Positions 1-33,745 of a stretch of DNA of 51,052 nt are shown piece by piece. Origin of the DNA: a virus. Lineage: Duplodnaviria; Caudoviricetes. The notes under the pieces were generated by a model. The model was not told the DNA's origin and searched no databases. It was given only the letters and a program-made list of their open reading frames with translations. The stretch spans positions 1 through 51,052 of the IMG/VR virus record IMGVR_UViG_3300024520_000105. One strand, 5' to 3'. The position numbers were made by a program, and so were the translations under genes. The stretch's first letter is position 1, and each line of letters begins with the position of its first letter.

Positions 1-218
1 ACGGGTAGCCGTCATAGCCAGTAGGTCTATTGCTATAGGCGTTAATGGTTAGGGACGCAGGGTCGCTTAGAAACCATATGCTTGCCTCTGAGGGTATGTG
101 GGTGGCGATTTGGCCTGCCCATGCCTGTCCACGCTCTCTGTCGCCCTCTACGGTGAAACTGAAGGGGGCTGTTCGTTCAACTCGGCCCTTAACCTCGTAT
201 GGGCGTAAGGATGCCCCA
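1..218. repeat. Terminal direct repeat/assembly overlap, left copy (matches 50835-51052)
   Basis: Direct comparison of the two ends: identical except 4 substitutions. Confidence 0.95.
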
Positions 219-919
219 AAGATATTGGTAGTCCATGCCGTATTGTCCCATGCACTAACTTGGGCTACCCGTCCACTTGCCTCATTGTCTTGGCCTAGCA
301 CGAATCCCGTAACAGTCACTAGCGTATCCTTGAAACTTGTGTTGGTGGCGAATACATCATATGGCGAACTCTGACCCAAACCACGCTCCTGAAAGGTAAC
401 GTCCAACTCGCTATACATCTTCTGTAGGTCCTCAAACACCCATGGGCCTATAATATCGCCTGCCTCTATGGTCCCTGTGCCCCCACCATTCACAGCCCAA
501 TACATAGAGTCATTGTAGTTGGTCCATACATCCCCACCGTCAGGGTCCCATTGTGTGGCCCTTCTCATAAAGTCTACGCCAGCCCTAGCCTGTAGCCCTG
601 TCCATGTAAAGGTCATATTGGGCAAGTCAGCGTTAGTCCCGCCCGTATCTACAGCAGCCCAATCTAGGAAGCTAGTACAGTTGCGTGACAGGAACTGCTG
701 TATGGGTTTCCAGAAGTTAGTGCCCTGTATGTCATCGCCAGCGAGTATGGTGGCTATGCCGTTAGAGCCTATAGCCGTAGCATGCTCATTGTACGTAATC
801 GTGAACTCATTGACTACGTTAGACGCCTGCCACTCTACGCCATTGGTTATGGACGTATAGCTTGCAGCACTTGATGTCATTGCTGTTGCCATGACTATAC
901 TGATAATCCTCTTAAGCAT
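1..919 (-). CDS. 5' part of a ~373 aa signal-peptide-bearing putative virion protein that crosses the circular junction (join 919..1, 50834..50632)
   Basis: Hand translation from ATG 919: MLKRIISIVMATAMTSSAASYTSITNGVEW..., open to base 1; absent from the ORF track because it wraps. Confidence 0.85.
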   Translation of the reverse strand, partial: MLKRIISIVMATAMTSSAASYTSITNGVEWQASNVVNEFTITYNEHATAIGSNGIATILAGDDIQGTNFWKPIQQFLSRNCTSFLDWAAVDTGGTNADLPNMTFTWTGLQARAGVDFMRRATQWDPDGGDVWTNYNDSMYWAVNGGGTGTIEAGDIIGPWVFEDLQKMYSELDVTFQERGLGQSSPYDVFATNTSFKDTLVTVTGFVLGQDNEASGRVAQVSAWDNTAWTTNIFGASLRPYEVKGRVERTAPFSFTVEGDRERGQAWAGQIATHIPSEASIWFLSDPASLTINAYSNRPTGYDGYP

Positions 920-926
920 CTCATCT

Positions 927-1244
927 CTAATTGTGCGCACGAACGAAGTCGAAAAGTAGCACCCCATTCGTTCCTAGTTGCAAAACTGTGTATGTGACCG
1001 TGGCTGCGGGCAATCCGCCCCCCGTCTTAACGTACTCTACAATAACTGACGATTCCGGCCAACCTGACGACCAATCATCACTCTCGCCACCGTCTTCAGC
1101 GTCGTCAAGCTGCGTCTCAAGCTCGGTTATGCGTGTCTCTAGTGCCTTGGCGTGGGCAATCAATTCCGCAATAACCGCCTCCTCATCCTGCCCGAAGCAA
1201 ACGCTTGCACACACAATCAAAAGCAGTATTAGCCAAGCTCTCAT
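927..1244 (-). CDS. Small signal-peptide protein with coiled coil, tail module
   Basis: MRAWLILLLIVCASVCFG-Q; ATGA overlap with upstream stop; heptad stretch. Confidence 0.75.
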   Translation of the reverse strand: MRAWLILLLIVCASVCFGQDEEAVIAELIAHAKALETRITELETQLDDAEDGGESDDWSSGWPESSVIVEYVKTGGGLPAATVTYTVLQLGTNGVLLFDFVRAHN

Positions 1245-3376
1245 TCGTTTGCCCACGTTCCTAAATCAGACGACTCGACCCTTGTTGTGCGCCACTTCCT
1301 ATCACCAATCCTGTCAACCTTAGTGCCCTGCTCTGATACACCGCCCATAGCAGCTGAAGCCGAATCAGAGTCTGCATGGTACGACACAGACTTTAACCAA
1401 GTGAACACTCGCACTTGGTCTATGGCGTCATTGGTGGGGCTTTGCCTGTATTTCCTAGTATTGAAAAGGTTTGTCTGTGTGCCTGTATCGGGGGGCCATG
1501 CGGTGTTGCCGCTAGTCACGTCAGGTATGTACGTCTTTCGGACCACTACATAGGAGCCGTTGGCCTGCAGGTTCTGGTCTATGCTGAATAACTGGTGGTT
1601 AGTAGGCGAAGGAATGCTGGACTGGTACATATCTGTCTGGTTGGTGAAAGCGTCAGAATAAAGCACCTGCGAGTTGGTGGCCGTTAGATGATACCACTCT
1701 ATAGTCTCTGCCTCGTTGCGCTTGCCCCTGCCAGCCTCAAACCTACGCTTAACAAACAGATTAGTACCCCTAGCCAGCGTCTCTTGCGACCTCAGACTAG
1801 CACTACCGTCCTTGTTGTCGCTCACTCTCAGGCTATCCTGAAACCACCCATTAACAGGCTGCCACGCATCCCTGACGCTCTCTATGGCCCCTATAGGTAT
1901 CCCATCGGCCCCTACGATATGCTGCCTGTCCCTGCCATTTGTCCCGCCCCCTATGTCTACATTGATATGGGCGTAGGTATTGGTGGTCAGCAATGACGTA
2001 CCGCTAAGGTTGGCCCACGTATTCGTATGATAGGTGAATACAACTGTATACAGCCCATTAGCGTCTATATCGCTGCTCTTGTCTATGAGCTTATAGGTGC
2101 TAGGCACCGTATCGGTCAGGCTGGCCGCTGCCGTCTTGGTGTAGTTTCTATACACTGAGCGTTTGACCGCATTGGTGCCAAACTCCCACCCTAAAGGATT
2201 GAGGCCGCGCTCACCGTCCAGAGCATCCGTCCCAGTGGTTGCCGCTTCGACTACCCGTTTAAGGGTTGTTTGACGAAGTGCCACACTGCCATCTCCGTTA
2301 TCGGTTACGGCAGCCTCAATAACATTGTATTCGCTAGAATCAGTAAACCCGCTCACAGCGTTGATTGCCTGTGTAGAGTCTATTATCTGTATGCCTTCCC
2401 AAGTCTTGACCCTAGATTCCCCATCCCTTGTACGGTTCCTGTAGGTAATCTCATTGTACGTAGTATTGGTATTACCACTCCATACGTTCCATACATTGGA
2501 CCTAAAGGCCACAGCAAACGTAGCACTGTTGTCCTTCTGTATCTTCCAATGCCTGTCTGAGTATGTCCAGCCTGGTGCGTTGCTTGACACCAACTGGGCG
2601 TCAGTAATGGTGCGCATCACATTGGTCTGCGTCTGCACGTCAGGCGAGATATTGTCCCATATCAGCCCTAAGTTCCGCCCCTCACCCGTCTCAAACCCAA
2701 ATAGCTTAAGTATCTCATGGTCCTCTGTGAGCCTATGGGGCAGACTAGCCAAATCCCCAGCATTGGTCACTAAGGACACTTTACCCAATGTCCTAGAAAT
2801 CTCTATGGCAGCATCATCTAATCTCTTGCTGCTTATCTCGGCTACAACAAATGTGCCCGTATACGTCTGTGCATCAGCAACGGGGTTGGTTACAACAGTA
2901 GCGTCGTTTAGGGAGACGAGTAGGGTGTCTGCGGACTGGGGGTCTACATACGGCCAGAACTGCCTAAAACGGAAGCCTGACGTTTTTGGGTCGCCTACCG
3001 CCTCTCCTAAACGCGCTTCTGAGTCTGGTAAGGAGGTAGCCAAACCAAACTGCAAATGCTCAATAAGTTGCCCATCGCCTGTCTTCCCTCTCTGTATCTC
3101 TACAGAAGATATACGCCATAAACCAGCATATACCCTTTGGTCTGCTTTGGGGTTTGTCTCTGTACGCCTAGCCCTTACGTCTGCTGCCACGTCCTCTAGG
3201 AACCTGTTAGGCACAGCCTTCCAGAACCTAGTCAAGAACCTGTCGCTCTCTAGTGACTTAGCACTAGACGACTTTACCAGTATGGCATTACGCTCATTCA
3301 ACAGAACGCCAATGTTATACTCAGCCCCTAGAGCAGTCGTAGCCAACAACAGTAATACTAGAGCCAAACGCTTCAC
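1241..3376 (-). CDS. 711 aa putative tail/virion protein with N-terminal signal peptide
   Basis: Long ORF after the adaptor; MKRLALVLLLLATTALG-A; Thr/Asn rich. Confidence 0.8.
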   Translation of the reverse strand: MKRLALVLLLLATTALGAEYNIGVLLNERNAILVKSSSAKSLESDRFLTRFWKAVPNRFLEDVAADVRARRTETNPKADQRVYAGLWRISSVEIQRGKTGDGQLIEHLQFGLATSLPDSEARLGEAVGDPKTSGFRFRQFWPYVDPQSADTLLVSLNDATVVTNPVADAQTYTGTFVVAEISSKRLDDAAIEISRTLGKVSLVTNAGDLASLPHRLTEDHEILKLFGFETGEGRNLGLIWDNISPDVQTQTNVMRTITDAQLVSSNAPGWTYSDRHWKIQKDNSATFAVAFRSNVWNVWSGNTNTTYNEITYRNRTRDGESRVKTWEGIQIIDSTQAINAVSGFTDSSEYNVIEAAVTDNGDGSVALRQTTLKRVVEAATTGTDALDGERGLNPLGWEFGTNAVKRSVYRNYTKTAAASLTDTVPSTYKLIDKSSDIDANGLYTVVFTYHTNTWANLSGTSLLTTNTYAHINVDIGGGTNGRDRQHIVGADGIPIGAIESVRDAWQPVNGWFQDSLRVSDNKDGSASLRSQETLARGTNLFVKRRFEAGRGKRNEAETIEWYHLTATNSQVLYSDAFTNQTDMYQSSIPSPTNHQLFSIDQNLQANGSYVVVRKTYIPDVTSGNTAWPPDTGTQTNLFNTRKYRQSPTNDAIDQVRVFTWLKSVSYHADSDSASAAMGGVSEQGTKVDRIGDRKWRTTRVESSDLGTWANE

Positions 3377-3738
3377 TATGACATATCCCCCCGTACACCT
3401 CTAGGAGTCTGGGACGCCCTATACTTGCGCCTAACCTGATTCAGCTTCCTATCGTACCTAGCCTCTATAGCAGGCAGGCTTTCTATGGTGTACTGTGCTT
3501 CGCCCTGAATGTAGAAATCCATGCCGATAGACAAGGTGTTCTCATACAGTTGGGCGTCCAAAGGTATCTCAGCTTCTACGCTGTCTATGCGTGTAGTGCC
3601 TACACCTATCCTGTTCTCAAAGTCGTCAAGGACTGAGTTGCCCGAATCTATGACAAGCTGTTGAAAGGTAGGAGACTCGGCTGACGCACCATACTTGCGG
3701 GCCTTCCTGTCTAGGAGGTCATGGAACTCGATACCCAT
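3376..3738 (-). CDS. Putative head-tail adaptor/connector
   Basis: 120 aa, helical, located after the capsid genes; no signal peptide. Confidence 0.5.
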   Translation of the reverse strand: MGIEFHDLLDRKARKYGASAESPTFQQLVIDSGNSVLDDFENRIGVGTTRIDSVEAEIPLDAQLYENTLSIGMDFYIQGEAQYTIESLPAIEARYDRKLNQVRRKYRASQTPRGVRGDMS

Positions 3739-3747
3739 TGTAGCCCC

Positions 3748-4176
3748 CTATTCTTTAGCAAATATGACTGTAGCCTTTACTGTGCTGTTGGTTGCTGTAG
3801 CCGCATAGGACTTCAGTATAACCTTCTCGTCATACATCACGTATCGCCCGCCAACACCATTGGTGATGAACGTGCTATTAGCAGTGATATTATCAGCAGA
3901 ATACAGCGTTCTCTCAGGCCAACCTATATCAACCACATTGGTCGTCACTATGTCCACGTCTACAGTGTTCACACCCGTAACCTGAATGTAAATCATCTCA
4001 ACGAAGCCACGCACCTTTGAGCTAGTGACAGCATCAACGGCTTGTGTGAACGAGCCAATGCTAACATCCGTTAGCTTCAATACGGGCGCAACTGAGGTCA
4101 AAGAACTCTTCGGCCCAGCCATGCTACATGTAACAGCCAGCAAGCTTATAATCAGAGTTTCTATTATTTTCTTCAT
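3748..4176 (-). CDS. Signal-peptide-bearing beta-rich putative virion protein
   Basis: MKKIIETLIISLLAVTCSMA-G; GGAG RBS. Confidence 0.75.
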   Translation of the reverse strand: MKKIIETLIISLLAVTCSMAGPKSSLTSVAPVLKLTDVSIGSFTQAVDAVTSSKVRGFVEMIYIQVTGVNTVDVDIVTTNVVDIGWPERTLYSADNITANSTFITNGVGGRYVMYDEKVILKSYAATATNSTVKATVIFAKE

Positions 4177-4188
4177 ATCTTCTCCAAG

Positions 4189-4219
4189 TAGCCTGGGGGC
4201 GGATTACACCCCCAAGCTA
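4189..4219 (-). terminator. Intergenic stem-loop (terminator or processing site)
   Basis: tagcctggggg...cccccaagcta inverted repeat. Confidence 0.5.
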
Positions 4220-4227
4220 TAGCTTGT

Positions 4228-5106
4228 TTAGTTGTCACCTACATTCTTGCCATTGATAACAATAGTACCATTGACGAAGTTAGTTGTGACCTCTGTGAAT
4301 GCACTACCTGCAGCAGCATCTACCACGCAGTTAAGCGAGACAGTGATACCTGAAGCAGTGCCGTCGAGGACCAAGTTTCCTGTAGTCGAAACGGTGTCAT
4401 ACACGTTAGTGACCTGTATTGGCGTGTTGGTTGAGGCAAAGTTAATCTCTGTGCCACTCAACGCACCAAACCCAGACGCAGCAGAACTACCAACACCAAA
4501 CGTCCACTTGTTAGTGGCGTCCATGTAGATGTTGGTTGCGTTAAGCGTCAGGTCATTGACAACAGTACCGTCAAAATTCCATAAACCTTCTGGAAGATTG
4601 AGCAACACTACGCTGCCAATAGCATTAGTCGTATCGTCTGCCGCAGGCGTCATCACTATCGGAGTGAGTGCCAGCGTCATCGTTATTGTCTTGTTGCCGT
4701 TCTCGGCATAGGTCAGTGCAACCGTAGACTGAGCGTTGGTTCCGCTACCAGAGCCATCAGTGCCAACAGTCGTGCCACTAGCGAATACGCCAGCGTCTAC
4801 CGTCAGGGTGATGTCGCCAGTACGGGATGTCTGCTCAAACTTAGCAGTGCCTGTACCTTGACTAAGGTCAAACAGTTCTGCGCCATAAGCAATAACCGAC
4901 AAGCCAATAACGGCTATAACGGCCAATATGCCTATACGTGCTGAACCAACTTCGCCTTTCTTCTTGCCGTCACTAGGACGCCCAAGATGAGATTCGGCGA
5001 ACCGACCCCAGTTTTCCTGCATCCTGCGTACTACTGCACACAGGTTATCTACTTTCTTCTCAAGCTCTTCTACAGAGCTAACTTTTTCTTTCGCTGCCAT
5101 TATCAT
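4228..5106 (-). CDS. Capsid-adjacent protein: N-terminal coiled coil, internal hydrophobic signal/TM segment, TN-rich beta domain
   Basis: VEELEKKVDNL heptads; IGILAVIAVIGLSVIAYG-A; GAGGAGG RBS. Confidence 0.8.
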   Translation of the reverse strand: MIMAAKEKVSSVEELEKKVDNLCAVVRRMQENWGRFAESHLGRPSDGKKKGEVGSARIGILAVIAVIGLSVIAYGAELFDLSQGTGTAKFEQTSRTGDITLTVDAGVFASGTTVGTDGSGSGTNAQSTVALTYAENGNKTITMTLALTPIVMTPAADDTTNAIGSVVLLNLPEGLWNFDGTVVNDLTLNATNIYMDATNKWTFGVGSSAASGFGALSGTEINFASTNTPIQVTNVYDTVSTTGNLVLDGTASGITVSLNCVVDAAAGSAFTEVTTNFVNGTIVINGKNVGDN

Positions 5107-5171: not shown

Positions 5172-6125
5172 TTATGCACCCGCGTTGCCGCGAATTGAAT
5201 GCGGCCTGTCCGCACCCGTAACATATACCATCCTCATGCGGGTTGCCCACACATCAGGATTACCAGCCACGTCAAACGACTGGCTCTCAGGGCGTTTGCC
5301 CCAGTACCAGAACAGTTCGTACAGGCTGTCTTTCGGACCGCTACCGAAGTAAGCAGTCGTGCTTGTCAGATAATCCCAAACTCTGTAGCTCAGGTTGTAT
5401 TCCGTGAGGAAGTTCTTATCGTTCAAAGCAGAACCAGGCTTCTGTGCAGAACCCAGCTCAGTGATTGCCGTATCTTCCAAGTCAGGAGGAATGATTACCT
5501 GCTGCATATGGATAGGGCGCACACGTCCACGCTCATTCGTATTCTTTCTGAAGTTAAGGCGCATAGTACCAACAGAACTCTGAGTCAGGCTAGAAGCCGT
5601 TTCCTCGTTGCCCCAAGTACCAGCAGCAGTATCTTCGCGATTACGGTCCGAATCAACCAGATTCATGCCATCAGCACAAACCCAAGCTACGGTAGTAGCA
5701 AAAGCTGTGTTGAACGGCAAAGCCGCGTAAAGTTCAATGGTGTCGCGAGCAGACTGATTAAGGTCAGCCATGCGCTTGTCGATAACATTGAACATGTCAG
5801 TTTCTCTAAGGCGTCTTTCAACCTGTATAGCCAGTCGATAAACTTCTGGCGTATAGCTGTTGTCGAAACCTTGGATTTTGTTAGCAAGAGGCATTGAATC
5901 AACATCACGGTTCTTAGGTGCAATACCTGTGCTTGTGATGTATGAATGTCTCTCTGTGTCTTTGTCTGTGTCACGCTGCTGCCAGAAGTCCAATCCTTGG
6001 ATTGGTTCCTGCCATGTGCGTTCTTTCACAAACGCGAATCTCTCGTCCAGCACATCCCCGAAGTTTTCCTTCATTAGGGTGCCAGGAGCCGAGAAATAAT
6101 TGGTAAGTGCAGATGCAGTTGCCAT
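5172..6125 (-). CDS. Major capsid protein (HK97 fold, Mu gpT-like)
   Basis: 317 aa; CADGMNLVDSDR and VIIPPDLE motifs; position after scaffold and cement genes. Confidence 0.85.
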   Translation of the reverse strand: MATASALTNYFSAPGTLMKENFGDVLDERFAFVKERTWQEPIQGLDFWQQRDTDKDTERHSYITSTGIAPKNRDVDSMPLANKIQGFDNSYTPEVYRLAIQVERRLRETDMFNVIDKRMADLNQSARDTIELYAALPFNTAFATTVAWVCADGMNLVDSDRNREDTAAGTWGNEETASSLTQSSVGTMRLNFRKNTNERGRVRPIHMQQVIIPPDLEDTAITELGSAQKPGSALNDKNFLTEYNLSYRVWDYLTSTTAYFGSGPKDSLYELFWYWGKRPESQSFDVAGNPDVWATRMRMVYVTGADRPHSIRGNAGA

Positions 6126-7799: not shown

Positions 7800-8036
7800 T
7801 TATCTCTGTCGCAGACGGCTACGCAACTCGCGCAACCTATCAATCTGCTTCAATTCGCCTCTACAAACTGCCGTGTCCCTCTCTGACAAGTCCTCTCGTT
7901 TTAGTCGTTGAACCACGTCTTGTTCGACTTCGTTGAGGTACGGCAAAAATGCTTCATCCCATTCAGGAAGGCTTGCCAGGTGCTTTACACCGTCACAAAC
8001 CTTCTGGTCTTTTATCCTGTCAAAAACTGTCGTCAT
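7800..8036 (-). CDS. Small conserved post-portal protein
   Basis: 78 aa, CRGELKQI motif, ATGA-coupled to the portal gene. Confidence 0.65.
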   Translation of the reverse strand: MTTVFDRIKDQKVCDGVKHLASLPEWDEAFLPYLNEVEQDVVQRLKREDLSERDTAVCRGELKQIDRLRELRSRLRQR

Positions 8037-10237
8037 ACTTGGCCTCCACCAGCTACTGCGCCACGCTGGGCCGCTATCTCGTTACCCACTACTTCACCCG
8101 TAGTCTCGTTGCCACTAGGCTGGGCGGGGGTTCCCTGTGGCAGAATGGATGGGGCAGAGTCCTGCAGGAACTTAGTCTGCTGTATCGCCTTCTTGAGCCG
8201 TGGCAGCCATGGAACCTCACTCTCTACGCCATTGTATGAAATCAACTCGCCCGTAAGCTCATGCATCATAACGTCCAAGTCATCGTTGGCATTGACCTGC
8301 GGTATCTCTGCCTCATTGGCCTTCATGCCCTCAATCATACGCCTAGCCTTGACCTCTGTAGCCTCTGAGTTGTCTGGCTTGATAAGGTCGTCAGACTCCC
8401 AGTGCAGCACATCGTCAAAGACCCGTTTGGCCACGTTGCGAAGGTTCAACACTGGATTGAGTATTGGCAATAGGTTCTGGGCGGCAAACGTAAGGTTCTG
8501 CCTGTCCATGATGTTCTGCTCAAAGTCTTGGACCAGCGTAATCTCTATGTCAAAGTCCCCATATAATTCTGTGGGGTTAATTTGTGTTTGTACTTGCTGG
8601 TCCGAGATTCGTATAATCTGGTCTTCCTTGCCGTAGATATGCCACAAGCGGATTTCCTTCTTAACCTGCCACGATAGCCACTGGTCTAGGATGTAGCGGA
8701 ATATCATCAGGTGAGGGCGAGCAGCAGCGTTGTTCACGTTCTCAGCCTCAGACGCACTTGTACGTCCGCCAAGCGGTGCACCCAATACTGTCTGCGTAGT
8801 TCCGGCTGTCTCGTTGCTGTCGTTCTCAAGGAAGGCCAGTATGTTGGCATTGTCAGAAACAGGACTTAGCTCAAACTCGCTAATGTCCTTAGACGGGTCG
8901 TTGCACTCATAGATTACGTCAGGGCCAAAGGTAAAGTTCTCAGTCTCTACGCCAGCATTCGTCACCCAGACCTCACCCTTCTTAACCTTCAGCGGGCGGT
9001 TATTGTTCACGGTTCTACGGTCTAGCCCCTGCTGCTTGGTAGTGGTCTGCTCGTTGATGTTGCCCCTAAGTATCTGCGCTAGACATGGGCCATAGAGCTT
9101 ATCGTTGTCTATGGGGAAGTTTCGCACCATCTTGTATGGGTACTCATCGTCAGGGTCTTTGTTGCGCTGGATGCGGACTACTAGGCCATTAGTAGGCTCT
9201 TGGTCGCTGATGATAGTGACCCAATACTTCTTAAGCTCATTCTTCTCTTCATCCCAACGCTTGCCCTTGGATTTAGTCTCGTCTATGGGCAATAGGGCCA
9301 TAGCCTGAAACTCTAGGAACTTGCCCTTGCGTGTCTTATCGGTGTTAGAGTCATAGGTGCTATTGTCTTCCTCGCTCTCTGTGCGTACATCGTCACCACC
9401 ACGGTAGAGGAGCGTAGTGTTTAGCTCGTCTACGTTCATATACAGGCCACGCCTAGCTGCGTCTCTTAGCTCTGTGATTCCCGTCTCTGACTTGACTACG
9501 ATGCAGTTCTGCTCTTGGATGGTCGGTATGTTCTGGTCAGCATAGAAGTTCCAGTTGGATATGGTGCCCCAATCTGGGCGATTCTCTTTGAGGACGCGCC
9601 TACGCTCTAATACGGTCTTGCCAGACTTGCCTACGGGCCAACGGTCCAGTACCTCGGCTGTCTCTTTCTTCCAATGAGAATACATAGGGACGTTGCCATA
9701 GGTGAATATCTCATGGGCGAATGCTATGGACTTTGAACCAAAGGACGACTGCTGGCGGGTCCACCTAGCCAGAGCCTGATGCTGGTCGGCCATCTCGTCG
9801 GCCTGCTCGCCACTACCCCACACCGCAGGATTCCACCTAGACTTAATCTTGTATGGGTCTTTCTTAGAAGTGAGAACGTCAATGAACATACCAGCCAAAG
9901 CCCTGACCTGACGCCAAAGGATAGTAGACCCAACCTTCTGGGTCTTGGTCTTGGTCATGTTGTCGTCAGAGTTGCGGTCTGTACGCCCACGCTCTATCTC
10001 ATGCTGGGCCTCGTTCTGGTTGGCCTTGAGGGACGCATCAGCCATCTTCCAGATTTCTTCAAGCTCGCTGCTTCTATCGCTCTTGAACTTCTGGTACTGG
10101 GTATCGACGTAGGCTAGGCACTCTTTTACCAAGTCTTCGTCGTCGGCCAGGTTGGGGGGATTGTAAGCGTCTTCGGTGTTCTTTATGACTTTGGGTTCAG
10201 TATCTGCGATAAAGGTGTCTAGGTCTTGGTCGGCCAT
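8033..10237 (-). CDS. Portal protein (P22-like)
   Basis: 734 aa; NFYADQ, LYGPCLAQ and RTSASE motifs; position. Confidence 0.85.
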   Translation of the reverse strand: MADQDLDTFIADTEPKVIKNTEDAYNPPNLADDEDLVKECLAYVDTQYQKFKSDRSSELEEIWKMADASLKANQNEAQHEIERGRTDRNSDDNMTKTKTQKVGSTILWRQVRALAGMFIDVLTSKKDPYKIKSRWNPAVWGSGEQADEMADQHQALARWTRQQSSFGSKSIAFAHEIFTYGNVPMYSHWKKETAEVLDRWPVGKSGKTVLERRRVLKENRPDWGTISNWNFYADQNIPTIQEQNCIVVKSETGITELRDAARRGLYMNVDELNTTLLYRGGDDVRTESEEDNSTYDSNTDKTRKGKFLEFQAMALLPIDETKSKGKRWDEEKNELKKYWVTIISDQEPTNGLVVRIQRNKDPDDEYPYKMVRNFPIDNDKLYGPCLAQILRGNINEQTTTKQQGLDRRTVNNNRPLKVKKGEVWVTNAGVETENFTFGPDVIYECNDPSKDISEFELSPVSDNANILAFLENDSNETAGTTQTVLGAPLGGRTSASEAENVNNAAARPHLMIFRYILDQWLSWQVKKEIRLWHIYGKEDQIIRISDQQVQTQINPTELYGDFDIEITLVQDFEQNIMDRQNLTFAAQNLLPILNPVLNLRNVAKRVFDDVLHWESDDLIKPDNSEATEVKARRMIEGMKANEAEIPQVNANDDLDVMMHELTGELISYNGVESEVPWLPRLKKAIQQTKFLQDSAPSILPQGTPAQPSGNETTGEVVGNEIAAQRGAVAGGGQV

Positions 10238-10827: not shown

Positions 10828-11490
10828 TCATTTTTTAGAATTTGGGTCTAGGTATCCTGCTATCTGCAGGTTTATACCGCTACCCTCCCACAACTCATTC
10901 TGCTGGCGGGCGTCCCATTCAGGCCCATAGTCATACCCATAGCGTATAGTCTCTCTGCCGCTATAGGCTGTTATGCCCTGTATGTCTATACCACGCTCTT
11001 TGGCGATGCCCCATAGGTATAGCATACCCATACGCTGTCTACGGTGCTTCAGGTCAAGCATATCGCAGCCTACTAGATGTATACTCTCATAACCCTCGTA
11101 TATGGCCTGAGCGAGCAAGTATGGGGGTGTACCACCCCAGAAGTCTAACCCTGTATAGGCTTCTATAGCCTTTGTGCCAAGCTCCTCTTCTATTTGGGCC
11201 AAAGGATAGGCCTCGCTGTTGGTTATTTGCTCTGATTGCTCCTGTAGGACGATTCTAACCCCCTGAGAGCCTAGCCAGCTTAGTTGGTCTAGGTGTTTTA
11301 CCCCGTCTATCTCGCTTACTAGGTCTTTGCGCTTGTCTAATTGGTGCATTTCATAGATTCGGGAGATTCGATTGGCCCATGGCAGGCTCCTGAACAGGTC
11401 CCAGCATGAGTTCATAGACCAGAACTCCCCCTCACCAGCGTATGGCAGCTTGAGAGAGGGGCCAAAAGACATGATTGTGACGGCTTTCAA
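10828..11490 (-). CDS. DUF115/Maf-like (MptE-like) putative glycosyltransferase
   Basis: GTPPYLLAQAIYEGYESIHLVGCDM and RIYEMH motifs; probable TTG start at 11490. Confidence 0.55.
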   Translation of the reverse strand: MKAVTIMSFGPSLKLPYAGEGEFWSMNSCWDLFRSLPWANRISRIYEMHQLDKRKDLVSEIDGVKHLDQLSWLGSQGVRIVLQEQSEQITNSEAYPLAQIEEELGTKAIEAYTGLDFWGGTPPYLLAQAIYEGYESIHLVGCDMLDLKHRRQRMGMLYLWGIAKERGIDIQGITAYSGRETIRYGYDYGPEWDARQQNELWEGSGINLQIAGYLDPNSKK

Positions 11491-12119
11491 GCCAGCACCC
11501 CCACAATGCTCTTCCTGCTGCATATCCCAAACAGCACACCAGCTATCCTGAACTTGAATATATCGTCCCTACGGTTAAACACCACATTATCGCCTATACC
11601 GCAGTCTCTTGGCTCCATAGGCCCTACAGCCACTATATTGCCCGTATTGATGTCAAACTCAGCATTCCAGTCCGTGAGCCTAACCCCCTCATCGAACTCC
11701 TGCCAGTCTAGCTTCAATACCACCATGTCATCTAAGGGCAATATCTTGCCGCCTCGCATTATGAAGGGCGGGCATATCCGCTCACGGCAGAACCAATACT
11801 CCATAGCCCTATCGCCTAATGGCTGTAGGTTCTGTAGGTCCTGCTCTGGCACCCATATAGTCTCACCATCTGCCCAATTACGTTGGCGGGCGCACATATC
11901 CTTGGTGAACTGCTTACACCCATCCCCTATGTCTATGAGTTCGCAGAAGTTGGTCTTTTCATGGTAATTGGCGGGCAATTCTAAGACTTTACCCCCACCA
12001 AGGTCTATTCCCCTAGTCCCATCGCCCAAATCGTCCGCCTGGCCACACTTCCTGACTATCATGCGGTCTTTTATCAGGTATATGCGGCTTATATAGTCTT
12101 CAGTCTCTTGCTGATTCAT
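11487..12119 (-). CDS. GroES-like co-chaperonin, apparently two tandem domains
   Basis: IKDRMIVRK and ILPLDDMVVLK...GNIVAVGP...IGDNVVF. Confidence 0.65.
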   Translation of the reverse strand: MNQQETEDYISRIYLIKDRMIVRKCGQADDLGDGTRGIDLGGGKVLELPANYHEKTNFCELIDIGDGCKQFTKDMCARQRNWADGETIWVPEQDLQNLQPLGDRAMEYWFCRERICPPFIMRGGKILPLDDMVVLKLDWQEFDEGVRLTDWNAEFDINTGNIVAVGPMEPRDCGIGDNVVFNRRDDIFKFRIAGVLFGICSRKSIVGVLA

Positions 12120-15160: not shown

Positions 15161-15409
15161 TTAGTGTTGTATCTTAGTAATAGAAACGGGCGGCGCAGGC
15201 GGTTTCTTAGATTCTGTCTTGGATTGAGGGGTACACGGACAGCAGCAGCAGCCCAACATAGTCTCAGCACTGCTTATGCTTCTAGGTGGCGGGGGCGGGG
15301 CTTCTCTGCCCTCTGGCGGGGCTACAAAGCCTTGCTCGTCTGAACCATCACCACTAGCCAATACAGTCCCCGCACATAGCGTGGCTGCTAGTATTCTAGC
15401 TATTTTCAT
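15161..15409 (-). CDS. Small secreted Pro/Cys-rich protein
   Basis: Signal peptide; CCCCPCTPQSKTESKKPPAPP. Confidence 0.65.
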   Translation of the reverse strand: MKIARILAATLCAGTVLASGDGSDEQGFVAPPEGREAPPPPPRSISSAETMLGCCCCPCTPQSKTESKKPPAPPVSITKIQH

Positions 15410-15863: not shown

Positions 15864-16065
15864 TGTTATCCCTCGGATGCGTCAAGTAATCCGTGTAGTT
15901 GCTTCTGGGGTCGGGCAATCCGTTCTCGTCACAGAACCTAGCTGCCAAATCAGCTATTGGGGCACAGTCATTGTTTGCACCCATCTTTGTGACCTCATCT
16001 CTAGTAGTAAGCCACGCACAGAACCCATAAACCGCTTCAGAACCAGTCAATACGCTATCCATCAC
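15853..16065 (-). CDS. Conserved phage hypothetical protein
   Basis: LTGSEAVYGFCAWLTTR...FCDENGL. Confidence 0.65.
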   Translation of the reverse strand: MMDSVLTGSEAVYGFCAWLTTRDEVTKMGANNDCAPIADLAARFCDENGLPDPRSNYTDYLTHPRDNNAK

Positions 16066-16205
16066 TTGCCCCCCTTCTTCACCTTCTTCACCCGCTTAGC
16101 ATCGCCCATATGCTTAGCATTTAACCTCACTAGCTCCATAGCCGCTATAGGGTCATAACTAGCCACATACGCCATATAGTCTATCTTGAAGTCAGACTTT
16201 GCCAT
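16062..16205 (-). CDS. 47 aa hypothetical protein
   Basis: Hand translation; coupled on both sides. Confidence 0.45.
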   Translation of the reverse strand: MAKSDFKIDYMAYVASYDPIAAMELVRLNAKHMGDAKRVKKVKKGGK

Positions 16206-16548
16206 TAGATTTACCTTTCTTCACCCATCCACCCACATTAGCCTCTACCTTCCTGTACCCTGACTTCTTTAGGCAGGCAGGGTGGAAGTAGTAGTGAGGG
16301 TCTTCGCTCCTACGGGTGAAAACATTGTAGTCGTCTATGTCGTTAGACTCCCTGCGCTTCTTGAATAATTGCTCATATATCGACAAGGGCAACGACTCCA
16401 TATCAGGCTCATGGCCCCATTCTTTGCATATATCACACTTCTGGTGTGCCGGTTCTCGCTCCAATACCGTCACACGCTCAGCCAGCGCAATATCACTAGC
16501 CCTTAACACAGTCATGGTATTCTTTAGATTCGCCCACCAACATCTCAT
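16192..16548 (-). CDS. Hypothetical Zn-binding protein
   Basis: CDIC...HPAC. Confidence 0.55.
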   Translation of the reverse strand: MRCWWANLKNTMTVLRASDIALAERVTVLEREPAHQKCDICKEWGHEPDMESLPLSIYEQLFKKRRESNDIDDYNVFTRRSEDPHYYFHPACLKKSGYRKVEANVGGWVKKGKSNGKV

Positions 16549-16688
16549 AATCTATACCCCCCAGTATATAACCTACAGTATCTTGTAGCTCACCAACCAC
16601 TATACACCATACCTTGGGGCCAAGTAAAGCCTTTTAGGGAAATCCCCCATATTTTTTGGGGTGTACCACAATATGGCACATTAAGAGT

Positions 16689-17799
16689 CTAGCAGCCCTT
16701 GGATATGCAGAAACGCATGAACTGCTCTACGGTATTCCACCCATAGCCAAACGTCATGTGGAACTCGTCATGGTGGGTCTTGCACAATGGGGCCAGATTA
16801 GACGACTGGTATATCTTATCCTTGGCTATATTACGCCCGTCCATGTGGTGTAGGTCAATAGGCTTTGGCACATCGCATATAACACAGCCAGCATATCGCC
16901 TTTTTATATTAGCCTTACATGTGCGCTTTTTGCCTATGCCTGGGTATTGTTCCGCCTTAAGGCACCCACAGGACTTGGTGTCGCCATTTTTAAGCGATGT
17001 GGCCCTAGTTTCAATAGTATTTCCACAGTCACAAAGGCATATCCACCACGCCTTCCGCTCCTTCTTGCCTCTAGCAAGCACCTCAAGACGTGTGAATCTC
17101 TGGCCAATAAGGCTGACTATCTGTGTTTTAGGCGAGCAACCACAGTGGGCGGCCTCTCTATTTGTGGTCCACTTCTCTGTGCCACAATCGCATCGTATAA
17201 GAACCTTGCCTTGGCGGCAGTCTAAAACCACGACTTTGCCTCTCCTTGTGCCGACCAGCTTGGACTTGCATCTGCCACAAGTTCTTCGATGGCCAAGCCG
17301 CCTATTGGCAAACTCAACCACTTCTCCACAATCGCATCTGCATACCGCCAAAAGCCCCCCCTGAGTATTTATACCCCAGAATCTCCAACTTCCCCTGCCT
17401 GTGCCCTATAGGCTTTGGCTCTGAACGGGTGCAAGTACAGGCCGTAAAGGCTTTCAGCCGGATTGCCCTTAATAGCCGTGTTTGGACTATTACCCGCTCT
17501 CGCCCGCATATATCGCACCTACACAACCACCGCCTGTCGTATTTGTCCTTGGACTTTTCGGCAAGGACTAGGAGGTGGCTTATCTGTTGCCCCTTAAGGA
17601 ACACACGCCTTGTAGGCCCCGCCACGGCCACTAAGGGCACTTCTTTGCCCAGCTTCCCATAGTACCGCCTACGCTGACGCTCTCGCTCACAAGACTTACA
17701 CTTCTTGTAATACCCGTCGCGGCTTTGGCGCTTATCCCAACGGACCTTAAACTCTGATATTGCCTTGGTTTCCAGACATCCTGAACATGTTTTAAGCAT
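16689..17799 (-). pseudogene. HNH homing endonuclease with CxCDCG repeats, split by a frameshift at a G7 run (17355-17361)
   Basis: ORFs 17314..17799 and 16689..17351 join as YSGG-LLAVCRCDCG if one G is removed; C-terminal LHH...NLAPLCKTHH. Confidence 0.75.
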
Positions 17800-17986
17800 C
17801 TATTCATCATAGCAGCTATTACTAGTTTGTCAACCGAAAAGGCTCTTTTAGCAAAAATTATGTGAAAAGTAGTAACGTGGCACCAAGGGTAGACGGATGG
17901 GCAACGGGTAGTCCCCATAGACCTACACGCCATGCCCATAGCCTATACACTCCATGCACATTGCCTTGCCTGTGCCATATAGCCTA

Positions 17987-18014
17987 GTGTCGCATAATAT
18001 ACGTTCGGTCTACT
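17987..18014. other. dif-like (XerC/XerD) recombination site
   Basis: gtgtcgcataa-tatacg-ttcggtctact, 11-6-11 layout; left arm close to E. coli XerC arm ggtgcgcataa, right arm degenerate. Confidence 0.45.
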
Positions 18015-18171
18015 CGTGATATTGCATAAGGTAGCATGGCTACTATGACTTATGACTATGGGGCAATGGGCTTGTACTTATTGAGATATGGGGCAATATG
18101 GGCGATAGTCATAAGCTACTATAACCAAGCTACTTTATGACATATAGGCTATAGGCTGTGGGGCATGTGCC

Positions 18172-18744
18172 CTATTCACTAGCCTTGAGCCTTAACAGTA
18201 TAGTCCCTGGCACGTCCTGCACCTGCTCCGACTGGCTGAGCATGGCCTGCTTGTCACGGGCTATGGCGGCCATTGTAGTGCTCTGGGCGGGCGATATGTC
18301 CCCTTGCTCGGCCCCTAGCTGGGCATTCACTAGGCTTGTGGCCTCCAATTTGGCCCATTGTGCGGCCCTGAAAGCTTTTATTTGCGCGGGGGTGAGCTTG
18401 AAAACCGATTTAGGGTCGTATCGCTTGCAATAGTCTCTTATGGTTTCCCATTCACACTTAAAGACCTTGGCTATCTTCTTATAGCCCAAACCCGCTGAGC
18501 GTCCCATGAGACACAGTAAAGCCGCCTCTGGGATGTCAAGCCACTCATCGCCTATACCGTTATCCCCTAAGTCAAGGACCTGTGGTAATGCTATAGAGCC
18601 GTCATCGGCAAGCTGTACGTCTTCAGGACTTATTATATCGTCTACGGTCTTATTGGGCCTTCTGCCGCTATTGTGGTTACCGCATGGCTTCTTTGGCTTG
18701 TCTGGTATGTCTTCTATGGGCGGGCGATTCGATGCTTCTTTCAT
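18172..18744 (-). CDS. Probable terminase small subunit (HTH)
   Basis: GLGYKKIAKVFKCEWETIRDY HTH; first gene of the packaging arm. Confidence 0.6.
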   Translation of the reverse strand: MKEASNRPPIEDIPDKPKKPCGNHNSGRRPNKTVDDIISPEDVQLADDGSIALPQVLDLGDNGIGDEWLDIPEAALLCLMGRSAGLGYKKIAKVFKCEWETIRDYCKRYDPKSVFKLTPAQIKAFRAAQWAKLEATSLVNAQLGAEQGDISPAQSTTMAAIARDKQAMLSQSEQVQDVPGTILLRLKASE

Positions 18745-19117
18745 GGCATGTATTATGGTCTATTTGGGCGGGCGTTTGCAAGCTTTTTAATCACGCTCGG
18801 ACCCGTTACATTTGGACGGCAAAATGTAGGGCACAGACTGACATTAGGCCAACATCTTGCCCCACCGTAAACGAAAGGCCCTTGTTCTATTGGCCTATAC
18901 GCTACACTCGAAATATCTTCGCAGTTTCTACAATGGTCTTTCTCATTGTTGCAATGGTAATAGTATTTGGGCTTCTTCGGGCGGGCGATTCGATGAAAAA
19001 AGAGGGCTTCCCAGAAAGTTTGCCTTTTCTTTCGTGACACCGGAATTGTGATACGCGCTGATATTGTTGGCTGATATGCATGTTTTGCGGGCTTAGTGTC
19101 ACGAATGGCTTTTCATC

Positions 19118-19134
19118 TTGGCACGGCAATCGCT
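19118..19134 (+). promoter_or_regulatory. Sigma54-type (-24/-12) promoter for the early arm
   Basis: TTGGCACG-gcaa-TCGCT versus consensus TGGCACG-N4-TTGCW. Confidence 0.55.
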
Positions 19135-19179
19135 TAATATACACCCATGACACAGAACACAAACAAAGGAGCACAGGCA

Positions 19180-19311
19180 ATGAAGACAAACAATGCGCTA
19201 GACATGCTGGCCGAGCAATGCGAACTATGGACTTGCCCTGTATGCTATATGGAGTCTATGCAAGATAAAGACACAAACAATGAAGACCGCATATGCGAGG
19301 ATTGCCAATAA
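19180..19311 (+). CDS. 43 aa Zn-ribbon early protein
   Basis: CPVC...CEDC; AAGGAG RBS. Confidence 0.6.
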   Translation: MKTNNALDMLAEQCELWTCPVCYMESMQDKDTNNEDRICEDCQ

Positions 19312-19481
19312 TGGCAAAAGCCAAATACGGTCATTGTGTCGAATGCGGCACAGCTCTTAGGCTTAGGAGGGTATATCGTAGTGCCGACCATGGTCTAATG
19401 GTTTGGACTCGTTGTAGAAATTGTGGGGCGAAACATGTATCCACAAAGTGGCTGACAACGCCAGTACTTAGCAGGGACTAG
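19311..19481 (+). CDS. Small Zn-ribbon early protein
   Basis: CVEC...CRNC; TAATG coupling. Confidence 0.6.
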   Translation: MAKAKYGHCVECGTALRLRRVYRSADHGLMVWTRCRNCGAKHVSTKWLTTPVLSRD

Positions 19482-19518
19482 TATAACCATGACACAGAAC
19501 ACCAACAAAGGAAACGCA

Positions 19519-19659
19519 ATGAACATTCCCGACCTGCCAGAATACCGCATTATAGACAGTATCGCTGACTATTGCCTTATCAGCCATGACGATTCTGCCG
19601 ACTTCGCCTTCTGGGTATCGGATATAGAAGCAAGATGCATATACGGGCTTAAGGTATAA
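19519..19659 (+). CDS. 46 aa early protein
   Basis: MNIPDLPEYRIIDSIADYCL...; follows leader repeat 2. Confidence 0.55.
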   Translation: MNIPDLPEYRIIDSIADYCLISHDDSADFAFWVSDIEARCIYGLKV

Positions 19660-19691
19660 CCGTGACAACAAAATGCAACAAAGGAGCAGCA

Positions 19692-20081
19692 ATGAGACGC
19701 ACAAATACAAACGAGTTCAAAGCAGCAATGAAAAGCACAAACACTAACGAGTTCAAGAGCAAGCTGCAGGCATACCTGGAGCCTATCATAGCGCAGAAGG
19801 CAGAAGACTACGGGCAGACGATAGAAGGCAATCCTTACCAGTGGGCTATTGATACAGCCAAGGCAGAGGTCGGCCATGAGTTTGACCGCAACGGTGACCA
19901 GGAAGGGCTTTCCTACTGGCTGAGCGGCCTAGCAATAGACATAGACTATAACTATTGCGACATTATACGGGTGGCGGAATCAATGCACGATTGCAAGCTT
20001 TCTGACAAAGAAGCTGATATGGTCTGTGAGCGTTGGTTTGACTTTGTAGCCTGTAAGATGCTCCAGTATGCGGCAGCTTAG
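19692..20081 (+). CDS. Early hypothetical protein with duplicated N-terminus (MRRTNTNEFKAA/MKSTNTNEFKSK)
   Basis: Between leader 3 and trailer 1; WLSGLAIDIDY. Confidence 0.75.
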   Translation: MRRTNTNEFKAAMKSTNTNEFKSKLQAYLEPIIAQKAEDYGQTIEGNPYQWAIDTAKAEVGHEFDRNGDQEGLSYWLSGLAIDIDYNYCDIIRVAESMHDCKLSDKEADMVCERWFDFVACKMLQYAAA

Positions 20082-20514
20082 CCCCCGCAATGACTCCCTG
20101 CTGCTATGGTAGCCCGGAGGATTGCCGACCAGAACGCAACGCCAGCAATGAGTTAACCATGACAACAAAATGCAACAAAGGAGCAGCAATGACACACTAT
20201 GAAGAACTAGCCAAACACCTGACCGAGCGCAGCGAAGAGATTTGCGCTGATAACGAATGCACAGAGGATGAACATAACTGCGACTCCTACGCCTACATGC
20301 AGGTAACGAGTCGGGGTTGCATTGACGGAAAGGAACGAATTGACGCAATGCTCTTGACGGTATGTTGCTCTGATTACTTTCAGGGAAGCGCCAAAGAGTA
20401 TATCGCTCTGCCGTTGCCTTTCACAGGTGATGCTAAGGCGTTGAAGGCAGCAGTTGAGGAGGAATGGCTTTCATTGGCTTAGCCCCCGCAATGACTCCCT
20501 GCTGCTATGGTAGC
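20076..20514 (+). repeat. Two identical 38 bp gene trailers (20076-20113, 20477-20514) that include the TAG stop
   Basis: gcttagcccccgcaatgactccctgctgctatggtagc; copy 2 extends into a hairpin. Confidence 0.9.
20189..20482 (+). CDS. Early hypothetical protein
   Basis: Between leader 4 and trailer 2. Confidence 0.7.
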   Translation: MTHYEELAKHLTERSEEICADNECTEDEHNCDSYAYMQVTSRGCIDGKERIDAMLLTVCCSDYFQGSAKEYIALPLPFTGDAKALKAAVEEEWLSLA

Positions 20515-28718: not shown

Positions 28719-29276
28719 ATGAAACACACACTACTCATAGCACTAATACTGGCAACTGGCTGTGGCTCGGTAAACTACGACAAGCTACAGGCTAAAGCCG
28801 AAAAGAAGCTAGGCCAAGAGATAGACGAAATCTTTAACCCCGCCCCCACCAGGGATACAGGGCCACAGGACGCCATAGACATGGATAAGGTCAAGTGGTG
28901 CTATGGCATGGCCCCAAAGAACCTACCTATCCAATACGCCATAGAGAATGCAAGGTATGGTGGTATAGGCTTAGAGTGGGATGGCAATGTCCCGCCCCAC
29001 TACAAGGGCATATCTAAGGGCTGTAACGCAGCTCTAGGCTTTGTAGTAAAGATAGACGAGAGTTACTATGGGGCATGGGGTGAGCAGGTTAGGGTTAAGC
29101 TCAATAATCAGACATTGGCGTTATTCCATAGCAGGGATGGGCTGACGTTTAAGGAGCCATTAGAGGAGTATAGCCATAAGCGCGGGGCAGAGTATTGGAT
29201 AGGTACGGCTTGTGGTGTATGTGCATTTGAGGGGCGGGCGAATCATGGCAGAAGCAACTTTATTAGGCTTAAGTAA
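28719..29276 (+). CDS. Lipoprotein
   Basis: MKHTLLIALILATG-C lipobox. Confidence 0.7.
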   Translation: MKHTLLIALILATGCGSVNYDKLQAKAEKKLGQEIDEIFNPAPTRDTGPQDAIDMDKVKWCYGMAPKNLPIQYAIENARYGGIGLEWDGNVPPHYKGISKGCNAALGFVVKIDESYYGAWGEQVRVKLNNQTLALFHSRDGLTFKEPLEEYSHKRGAEYWIGTACGVCAFEGRANHGRSNFIRLK

Positions 29277-29361: not shown

Positions 29362-30024
29362 GTGAAAGCATATTATCAGGATAGCTATTGTACGATATAT
29401 CACGGGGATTGTAGGGAAGTGTTGCCAGAGGTGGGTGACGTGGATTTAGTGTTGACCGACCCACCTTATGGGGTGGGCAAGCTTGTGGGCGGGATTTCCA
29501 AGGCTCGCAACAAGAACCATTATGCGTCACACGACGATACAGAAGAGTTTGTTGAAACCGTGGTGGTGCCCGTTATTATCACATGCATTGAAAAGGTGCA
29601 GAGGGTTGTTTTGACGCCAGGTTCACGGTGCATGTGGCTATACCCCCGCCCCTACTGCACAGGCGTATTCTATTATCCTGCCGGAGCGGGCATGTCGCGG
29701 TGGGGTTTTAACTGCTGGCAGCCAATCCTTTTCTATGGCAAAGACCCCTATGGTGGCACCTTGGGAAAACACAACGCTAGACGCAGCACTGAGGCGTCGG
29801 ACAAATCTATTGACCACCCGTGCCCCAAGCCCATTGGCGACTGGAAGTGGTTGCTGGACAGGGCCAGCAAGGAAGGCGAAACCATACTGGACCCGTTCAT
29901 GGGCAGCGGAACCACCCTCAGAGCCGCCAAGGACCTACAACGCCACGCTATAGGCATAGAGCTAGAGGAGAAGTACTGCGAAATAGCTGCCAAGCGTCTA
30001 GCGCAGGAGGTGTTGGCCCTATGA
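29362..30024 (+). CDS. DNA methyltransferase (N6-A/N4-C, beta class)
   Basis: DPPY; HPCPKP; DPFMGSGTT. Confidence 0.92.
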   Translation: MKAYYQDSYCTIYHGDCREVLPEVGDVDLVLTDPPYGVGKLVGGISKARNKNHYASHDDTEEFVETVVVPVIITCIEKVQRVVLTPGSRCMWLYPRPYCTGVFYYPAGAGMSRWGFNCWQPILFYGKDPYGGTLGKHNARRSTEASDKSIDHPCPKPIGDWKWLLDRASKEGETILDPFMGSGTTLRAAKDLQRHAIGIELEEKYCEIAAKRLAQEVLAL

Positions 30025-33362: not shown

Positions 33363-33745
33363 CATGCCTAGAGTGTAAGTGGTTTGTGGTAGGTGCGACC
33401 TTTGGTGCTGGCCCTGTGAACTATTGTAACAGATACCCGCACTACTTCCATAGGCGAGACGAGGACCCTGCTTGTGGCGAGTTCAAGCCAGCCAAGGCCG
33501 CCCCAACCAAACGCTTCGTCCCGCCCACCACAATAGAGGTAAAGGAATACGCTGAGTCTATAGGCTATAGGCTAGACGCAGAGGCGTTCTGTAGCCACTA
33601 TGATAGCAATGGCTGGAAGGTGGGCAAGAATAAGATGAAGGATTGGCGGGCGGCTGTTAGGACATGGAAGCGCAATGCTACCCCTGACGAGCTAGTAGGC
33701 AATGATGGCTTTGATTTGAGGGAACTTAGGAAGGAGGGGGCGTGA
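33359..33745 (+). CDS. Replication initiator C-terminal-like (helicase loader) protein with N-terminal Cys motif
   Basis: KRFVPPT..EV...YDSNGWKVGKNKMKDWRAAVRTW. Confidence 0.7.
   Translation: MTCLECKWFVVGATFGAGPVNYCNRYPHYFHRRDEDPACGEFKPAKAAPTKRFVPPTTIEVKEYAESIGYRLDAEAFCSHYDSNGWKVGKNKMKDWRAAVRTWKRNATPDELVGNDGFDLRELRKEGA

Follow-up and report, generated by a model that had tools for sequence, protein, structure and literature searches.

The 51,052-nucleotide (nt) stretch of DNA analysed here, called the window below, is the whole of virus record IMGVR_UViG_3300024520_000105, a marine tailed phage (Duplodnaviria; Caudoviricetes) with a CheckV completeness of 100%. Its genes form two blocks split by strand, and the late, minus-strand block runs from about 17.9 kb down to position 1 and then from 51,052 down to 39,510. 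The late order begins with terminase, portal, a scaffold-position gene, genes for proteins of 135 and 164 amino acids (aa) and the capsid gene, and continues with genes for proteins of 292, 142, 120, 711, 105, 373 (the junction protein), 493, 1533 and 960 aa, a LamG protein, and proteins of 138, 132 and 158 aa. The capsid gene is a boundary between late genes free of signal-like N-termini and late genes rich in them. The proteins on the far side of that boundary, among them candidates for a tail hub and a tail fibre, and the Sec-type signals they appear to carry are the subject of this analysis. Positions 50835..51052 are a direct repeat of 1..218 (218 nt, 4 mismatches), so that the genome measures about 50.8 kb and the junction gene spans both ends, as an earlier reading of the same sequence (the original prediction) had proposed. 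The record is classed as linear in IMG/VR; the repeat may be a genuine terminal repeat that has variants, or an overlap left by assembly of a circularly permuted population. The genes at the center of the argument are the following.

4228..5106, minus strand: 292-aa protein directly past the capsid gene, with a charged N-terminal part of ~57 aa, a transmembrane (TM) segment at residues 58-76 and then a Thr/Gly/Ala-rich beta-type region.
3748..4176, minus strand: 142-aa protein whose N-terminus is of signal or lipoprotein type, followed by a linker and a jelly-roll beta-sandwich.
1241..3376, minus strand, GTG start: 711-aa tail-hub candidate, with a 17-aa signal-like N-terminus followed by ~8 tandem beta-beta-alpha-beta-beta domains.
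927..1244, minus strand: 105-aa protein in the needle/plug position past the hub, with a signal-like N-terminus, an acidic coiled-coil-type segment and a small beta region.
1..919, minus strand: N-terminal 306 of the 373 aa of the junction protein, with a weak signal-like N-terminus.
50632..51052, minus strand: C-terminal part of the junction protein, whose open reading frame (ORF) continues at 50632..50834 across the terminal repeat.
41671..44553, minus strand: fibre candidate of 960 aa; its signal-like N-terminus is 19 aa long and its first ~150 aa are conserved.
40890..41684, minus strand: 264-aa LamG/concanavalin-like protein (Pfam Laminin_G_3 PF13385, E 3.8e-17) with a signal or lipoprotein-type N-terminus.
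40477..40893, minus strand: 138-aa protein with a signal-like N-terminus.

N-termini were scored with a strict rule of our own rather than with SignalP. The rule asks for a net positive charge before the hydrophobic run (n-region), an 8-residue Kyte-Doolittle mean of at least 2.4 in a core of 7-19 residues (h-region), and a small -3/-1 cleavage site or a lipobox (c-region); it often takes the first possible cleavage site, and the sites it gives are approximate. It replaced a permissive first rule that allowed any start and was too noisy, calling 15 of 89 ORFs in the window, 7 of 49 in T7 and 9 of 71 in P22. By the strict rule 7 of the 23 late genes are positive, all of them among the 13 past the capsid and none among the 10 from terminase to capsid. 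The positives are the 142-, 711- and 105-aa proteins, the junction protein, the fibre and LamG candidates and the 138-aa protein, each N-terminus lying in the sequence where the original prediction had placed it. Under the same rule the portal, scaffold-position, 164-aa, capsid, 120-aa adaptor-position, 493-aa and 1533-aa proteins are without such an N-terminus, again as predicted, and the internal hydrophobic segment claimed for 4228..5106 is present, with a mean hydropathy of 2.45. Among control late proteins, T7 gave 0 of 17 and P22 2 of 17, the two being the spanins Rz and Rz1. T7 Rz1 was missed, which marks the rule as conservative, and the non-lysis morphogenesis proteins of the two phages together gave 0 of 27 (Fisher p 9e-5).

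Each of the seven has a full n-h-c build. A net charge of +1 to +2 precedes the hydrophobic run in 7/7, the cores are 9-16 residues long, the 8-residue hydropathy is 3.2-4.0 in six and 2.49 in the junction protein, whose signal is the weakest, and all seven end in a small -3/-1 or lipobox site. The lipobox-like sites of the 142-aa protein (AVTC) and the LamG protein (STAC) are atypical. All seven starts either have a purine-rich, Shine-Dalgarno-like stretch 5-12 nt upstream or abut the stop of the upstream gene. Judged by sequence, then, these N-termini fit the pattern of Sec signals and look real and selected.

Related virus contigs, recovered with capsid and portal profiles down to a portal identity of 28%, place these counts in a wider setting; they include a complete 50,977-bp genome with terminal repeats (G003; contigs and public proteins are cited by our own labels). 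When the plus-strand ORFs of 11 related contigs were scored by the strict rule, with any start in the first 45 codons allowed, 20 of 52 ORFs past the capsid were positive versus 1 of 165 up to and including it; the contigs are mutually related and are not 11 independent trials, so a p-value from these counts overstates independence. One could still ask whether the N-termini result from the start codons chosen or from hydrophobic stretches read by chance ahead of the true starts. In the public call P0154 (window 2..919) the junction protein is given an internal Met as its start and so lacks the signal-like N-terminus, an ATG 40 codons upstream offers the fibre ORF a second possible start, and the permissive rule made many false calls. 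However, the signal-including starts have the upstream features just described, independent public gene calls include the signal in P0002, P0003, P0004, P0008 and P0153, and the any-start rule that found so much past the capsid in the relatives found next to nothing before it, all of which makes an artefact extremely improbable.

The signals recur by position. Wherever a contig extends far enough, the one or two genes that separate the capsid and adaptor positions encode a signal (or, at position 1, a signal/type II anchor). At the first of these positions, seven relatives (L022, L024, L025, L026, L027, L028 and L029) encode a protein with a cleavable signal, and L023, L020 and G001 share the coiled-coil and TM design of the window's 292-aa protein, a predicted type II membrane protein that BLASTP links to G001 only (E 8e-6). 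The 142-aa family, aligned across 12 contigs (alignment A6), has a signal in 11/11 members whose N-terminus is present, several with good lipoboxes (LASC in L023, ISAC in L022, LIAC in L020). In the case of the fibre, residues 1-154 are 40% identical to a 987-aa protein of G003 and residues 1-220 are 49% identical to P0153, and all three proteins keep the signal and have Phe as the first mature residue. Signals are also present in G003 at the LamG position (293 aa) and at the position of the 138-aa protein (134 aa), where both proteins continue with Gly-Asp past the site. The exported set of the clade would comprise five positions: the small beta-sandwich gene or genes between capsid and adaptor, the junction position, the fibre, the LamG position and the small gene following it. 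In the sublineage of the window, a signal appears to have been added to the hub and to the coiled-coil protein behind it as well.

The history of the hub leader can be followed in more detail, as HMMER found 283 homologs of the 711-aa protein in a library of 1.84 billion proteins. N-termini were compared among the best 150 of the 283 together with P0002 (151 proteins); BLASTP matched the N-terminal segment in 64, and the 38 whose alignment starts no more than 12 residues from the segment start were counted as N-terminally aligned. A leader of 17-21 residues with n-h-c build is found in five of the 38 (the window, P0002, P0003, P0004 and P0008). Nineteen begin 0-3 residues before the predicted cleavage position, ten have 5-11 hydrophilic residues in place of the leader, and four have the domain in an internal position. 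In the alignment the leader stands as a neat addition ahead of a conserved N-terminal domain. Since the signal-free hub and junction homologs start at the site of predicted cleavage, the leader is separable and the predicted mature end is a natural N-terminus. A metagenome fragment 76% identical to the hub (L017) keeps the leader although it differs from the window at 7 of 18 signal positions, and the changed positions are still hydrophobic or small, so that n-h-c character is retained while residues change. Selection would seem to act on the signal property rather than on the sequence. This pattern suggests old leaders for the conserved set (fibre, 142-aa family and the rest) and later gains, in the window's sublineage, for the hub and 105-aa proteins and perhaps for the junction protein. 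A joint gain of signals by the hub and the next gene is seen in the window alone; a scan of metagenomes gave two short contigs, neither of which reaches the next gene.

Export grammar, confinement to one part of an operon, conservation of the property and leaderless orthologues that start at the site make working signals the simplest reading of these N-termini. A different account would leave the leaders in place on proteins assembled wholly in the cytoplasm, where the segments serve the particle or its entry as membrane-inserting ends, or act as transient tethers during assembly. Membrane-active segments are common in ejection and tape-measure proteins, the signal-free hub and junction orthologues show that cytoplasmic synthesis yields working mature chains, and a hub would be expected on the head before lysis, as in P22. 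Yet the window's own ejection-position proteins have no such N-termini, and the seven proteins that do have them show the full export grammar, with cores of 9-16 residues that are too short for a stable membrane span and with a -3/-1 or lipobox site. That grammar, site included, is kept while residues change, and the positive-inside rule would place the bulk of each protein outside the cytoplasm. We regard retention of the leaders as quite unlikely.

Whether the signal-bearing proteins are parts of the virion is a separate question, and it turns first on the hub candidate. An AlphaFold2 model built from a 97-sequence alignment is confident (predicted local distance difference test score, pLDDT, 90.6) and has about eight tandem domains behind an N-terminal helix. 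With the whole model, Foldseek returned nothing from the PDB at E <= 0.001 and only unnamed or uncharacterised phage proteins from BFVD; tblastn gave no match among cultured phages, and the Atlas search no usable match. With an exhaustive aligner, residues 21-111 and 113-201 match chains of the tail-tube fold at Z 5-7, with a root-mean-square deviation (rmsd) of ~3 Å over ~82-86 residues, a range that is common for unmatched models. The chains include the lambda tail tip (8iyk_M, Z 6.9), the Pam3 baseplate (7yfz_a, 6.8), the T1 tip (9l9p_H, 6.7) and T5 Dit (4jmq_A, 6.3), and further the 80alpha baseplate, Hcp3, gpV and the SPP1 tube; many of the best 50 structural matches are phage tail-tube-fold proteins. 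The gene lies directly past the adaptor-position gene and ahead of the ejection-position genes in the window, L019, L021, L022, L023, L024 and G003, where "adaptor" is a label taken from position. Because the protein adjoins that gene, has a confident model and matches tail-tube folds, it is probably a tail part, and there is moderate support for calling it a tail hub or tube protein. A complex prediction pairing the adaptor-position protein with hub residues 18-205 scored 0.00, which is evidence neither way. Hub homologs range from 471 to 1665 aa through the number of tandem domains and through C-terminal extensions (for example, L021 (G002) 15882..20153 and G003 261..2792), and in some relatives the hub itself may carry a receptor-binding part.

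The fibre candidate has the usual layout of such proteins, a conserved N-terminal part followed by a divergent rest. In the Atlas the closest clusters belong to phage fibre or baseplate families, with scores at lead level (at most 0.82); the candidate has no family match, and neither sequences nor profiles from the hub, fibre, junction, capsid, adaptor-position and 142-aa families found a significant match in the PDB. The window's candidates for receptor binding (hub, junction, fibre and LamG) all bear a signal, which implies that at least one signal-bearing protein must be in the virion, and we consider that at least the hub and the fibre are probably virion parts.

For the 142-aa protein the evidence divides. 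Its AlphaFold2 model is a jelly-roll of moderate confidence (pLDDT 68.6) that matches the trimeric cement protein of KHP40 (7dou_4) at Z 8.9 with an rmsd of 2.8 over 109 aligned residues, and cement jelly-rolls of Pam1, GP4 and BPP-1 at Z 7.5 (7eel_H), 7.2 (8h89_J) and 7.1 (3j4u_H). These proteins are of similar size, and the 142-aa gene stands beside the capsid gene; the comparison is limited by the confidence of the model and by unrelated jelly-rolls (CBM32, discoidin and others) that score the same, with 357 chains at Z >= 5 and values up to 9.5. No signal is known on the cement proteins of KHP40, BPP-1, GP4 or Pam1.

One possibility is that most of the signal-bearing proteins are exported without being virion parts, act on the envelope of the infected cell (to exclude superinfection, mask receptors, bind polysaccharide or aid lysis, for example), and leave the particle to be built from signal-free proteins. 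Exported lipoproteins beside tail genes are well known in phages. Lambda Lom and Bor, T5 Llp and phi80/T1 Cor are, like several proteins of the window, small signal- or lipoprotein-type products of late or tail clusters, and they act on the host envelope. Several of the carriers are indeed small and have lipobox-type sites (the 142-aa family and LamG), LamG and jelly-roll folds are typical sugar-binding modules, and a membrane protein (292 aa) lies directly past the capsid gene. However, Lom, Bor, Llp and Cor are single, dispensable proteins outside the virion, with a scattered distribution, whereas the window has seven carriers, the 960-aa fibre and the 711-aa hub among them, in positions fixed across the clade. 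The presence of signals between the capsid and adaptor positions in every relative that reaches them argues against patchy morons. An envelope role would also leave the hub unexplained, as a member of a 283-protein phage family that adjoins the adaptor position and has tail-tube-like domains, would leave the window without a signal-free receptor-binding candidate, and would not account for the fibre-like layout of the 960-aa protein. We judge it rather unlikely as an explanation for most of the set.

In the textbook scheme, the assembly of a tailed phage is entirely cytoplasmic. The reading we tentatively favor, at somewhat less than even confidence, is that the N-termini in the window are working Sec-type signals, some of the lipoprotein type, that their carriers leave the cytoplasm, and that some of these join particles at lysis. 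Precursors would cross the inner membrane via Sec and lose their leaders to signal peptidase I or II, and the mature chains would fold and then wait in the periplasm or at the outer membrane. DNA-filled heads would meanwhile be built in the cytoplasm, and the two sets would stay apart until lysis breaches the inner membrane, at which point peripheral parts would bind. What the sequences show is the n-h-c build, its confinement to genes past the capsid and its conservation across the clade; export, cleavage, joining at lysis and a place in the virion for the hub and fibre are inferred. The original prediction had exported parts joining filled heads during or after passage through the inner membrane; mixing of the compartments at lysis would suffice as the least demanding route, and nothing supports joining during passage. 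Late addition is physically possible, since completed particles take up P22 tailspikes, T4 fibres, Dec, Hoc and Soc in vitro, and late binding of this kind by the P22 tailspike, T4 long fibres and Dec/Hoc/Soc is all that a meeting at lysis requires. Unlike in the route proposed here, every part of those model phages is made and joined in the cytoplasm and none is known to carry a signal peptide, in keeping with the T7 and P22 controls.

The functionally closest system is found in the Inoviridae, whose coat proteins pVIII and pIII are made with cleavable signal peptides and assembled at the envelope. As in those phages, precursors in the window have Sec-type leaders and the particle is proposed to be finished outside the cytoplasm. 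Unlike them, the window encodes a tailed, double-stranded DNA phage with a terminase, a portal and a capsid gene order of HK97 type, no assembly genes of inoviruses were seen, and the heads would be far too large for extrusion through a secretin.

Several observations weigh against assembly in two compartments. The hub is without a signal in 33 of its 38 N-terminally aligned homologs and in all six related contigs that include its start (G003, L019, L021, L022, L023 and L024), so that cytoplasmic assembly is clearly ancestral for this protein. P22-type phages need the hub and needle if their heads are to retain DNA, and with a hub waiting in the periplasm filled heads would have no plug. For the junction protein a single homolog was found (P0155, 32% identity), which has no signal and starts where the mature chain is predicted to start, and the proteins at the 105-aa position in L021 (118 aa) and L023 (169 aa) have a coiled-coil-type start and no signal; BLASTP found no similarity between the 105-aa protein and these positional counterparts. 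The fold matches of the hub are modest and lie in the Z 5-7 range rated as common, and the jelly-roll of the 142-aa protein fits carbohydrate-binding modules as well as it fits cement proteins. No lysis cassette was recognised that would show how the compartments mix. A rationale for export in disulfide bonding or redox chemistry was considered and rejected, as the mature signal-bearing chains hold 0-3 Cys and the hub none.

How the original prediction fares depends on the protein. Its proposal of a two-compartment pathway retains support from signals that look real, lie past the capsid only and recur across the clade; the sign it had itself named as telling against it, homologs without signals, is what we found for the hub, the junction protein and the 105-aa position. 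Its expectation that homologs keep their signals holds for the fibre (3/3) and the 142-aa family (11/11) and fails for the hub in most homologs, for the sole junction homolog and for the 105-aa position in two relatives. Its assignment of the tail and decoration proteins to the virion is favored for the hub by position and by tail-tube-like domains, and for the 142-aa protein meets a fold that serves cement and carbohydrate-binding proteins alike. In its broadest form, the proposal is that this marine clade splits virion construction, with heads built in the cytoplasm and with fibres, decoration or cement-type proteins and, in one sublineage, the hub and plug exported and added at the breach. 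That broad form we place on the unlikely side.

Two further comparisons involve phage proteins with established export. Spanins Rz/Rz1, secreted and signal-anchor-release (SAR) endolysins and the T4 antiholin RI (PMC8385771) are late proteins that use Sec signals, anchors or lipoboxes. The signal proteins of the window are unlike spanins in size, fold and position, and include neither an N-terminally anchored periplasmic coiled coil nor a short proline-rich lipoprotein. We rejected a reading of the 292- and 142-aa proteins as a two-component spanin, a pair from adjacent or nested genes in which a type II inner-membrane protein has a periplasmic coiled coil and its partner is a short lipoprotein of the outer membrane. 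The coiled-coil-type part of the 292-aa protein is predicted on the cytoplasmic side of its TM segment and the Thr/Gly-rich region outside, seven relatives have cleavable-signal proteins at its position, and the 142-aa protein is a folded beta-sandwich and no short proline-rich lipoprotein. Counts of sequons and of D-S/T-X motifs were unremarkable.

The remaining late genes referred to above are listed here.

8033..10237, minus strand: portal protein, whose profile (A5) matches the PDB portals 9bgm_c (E 4e-9) and 9lbz_A (E 1e-8).
5172..6125, minus strand: major capsid protein, with a weak match to phrog_371 (E 0.001) and 53-68% identity in 6 related contigs.
3376..3738, minus strand: adaptor-position protein of 120 aa, helical and signal-free, named from gene order only.
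49141..50622, minus strand: 493-aa Ala/Glu/Lys-rich, signal-free protein in an internal/ejection position, placed by gene order and composition only.
44553..49154, minus strand: 1533-aa signal-free protein in an internal/ejection position, placed by gene order only.
39510..40381, minus strand: the last two late genes, possible lysis genes, encoding 132 aa (C-terminal TM segment at 90-108) and 158 aa (weak match to phrog_1158, E 2e-5).

The 120-aa protein is conserved in relatives (BLASTP E 1e-12 to 1e-17; alignment A7) and has no family or PDB match. An HExxH motif (HELQH) in the 1533-aa protein hints at a metallopeptidase domain, and the protein has no family match. No endolysin, holin or spanin was recognised anywhere in the genome, and the last two late genes are the only positional candidates for lysis. 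The sole PDB matches of the portal profile are gp80 (9bgm_c) and a 763-aa probable portal protein (9lbz_A); the latter looks N4-like, which hints at a distant kinship of this phage with the N4 group. Upstream of the portal gene, a 210-aa late protein (11487..12119, minus strand) matches Cpn10/GroES in its C-terminal half (PF00166, E 5e-5, above the curated cut-off), and relatives have genes with a similar motif in the same position.

The phage is very divergent, as PHROGs and Pfam gave nearly no matches for its late proteins. Matches of the terminase are distant (best identity, 27%). No prophage relatives were found in species-representative genomes with the capsid and portal profiles, and no tRNA genes were found in the window. 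The sequence is present in three seawater metagenome runs, of which two may be where it came from; there is no RNA run among the runs listed as containing it. On the plus strand, far from the head genes, 36482..37279 encodes a ClpP-family protease (PF00574, E 8e-20) that could be an oddly placed prohead protease or serve host takeover. Also on the plus strand, 29362..30024 and 33742..34395 encode proteins of DNA methyltransferase type with near-identical N-terminal sequences, which look like paralogues and have a similar gene in G002. Two proteins outside the module are also exported-looking or signal-like: a 185-aa lipoprotein-type protein in the early block (28719..29276, plus strand) and an 82-aa Pro-rich protein with a weaker signal-like start (15161..15409, minus strand).

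A search of openly accessible full-text literature, covering titles and the starts of abstracts, found no description of Sec signals on tailed-phage fibres or hubs. Passages drawn from PMC3556154 deal with annotation methods only, and those from PMC3483164 with Rz1 lipoproteins only.

If the reading of export followed by late joining is correct, the cytoplasm is not the only place where parts of a tailed virion can be made, and the repeated gain and loss of leaders at an unchanged mature N-terminus would mean that the compartment in which a part is made is evolvable for each virion part. One conceivable benefit would be to hide tail proteins from cytoplasmic immune sensors of phage structural proteins. 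Such a pathway would change how structural modules are annotated, where one leader has already been clipped by gene callers, how lysis is coupled to assembly, and where host defenses see phage proteins. If the signal-bearing proteins are not virion parts, this lytic-type genome would still encode a set of envelope-directed proteins that is unusually large and fixed in position.

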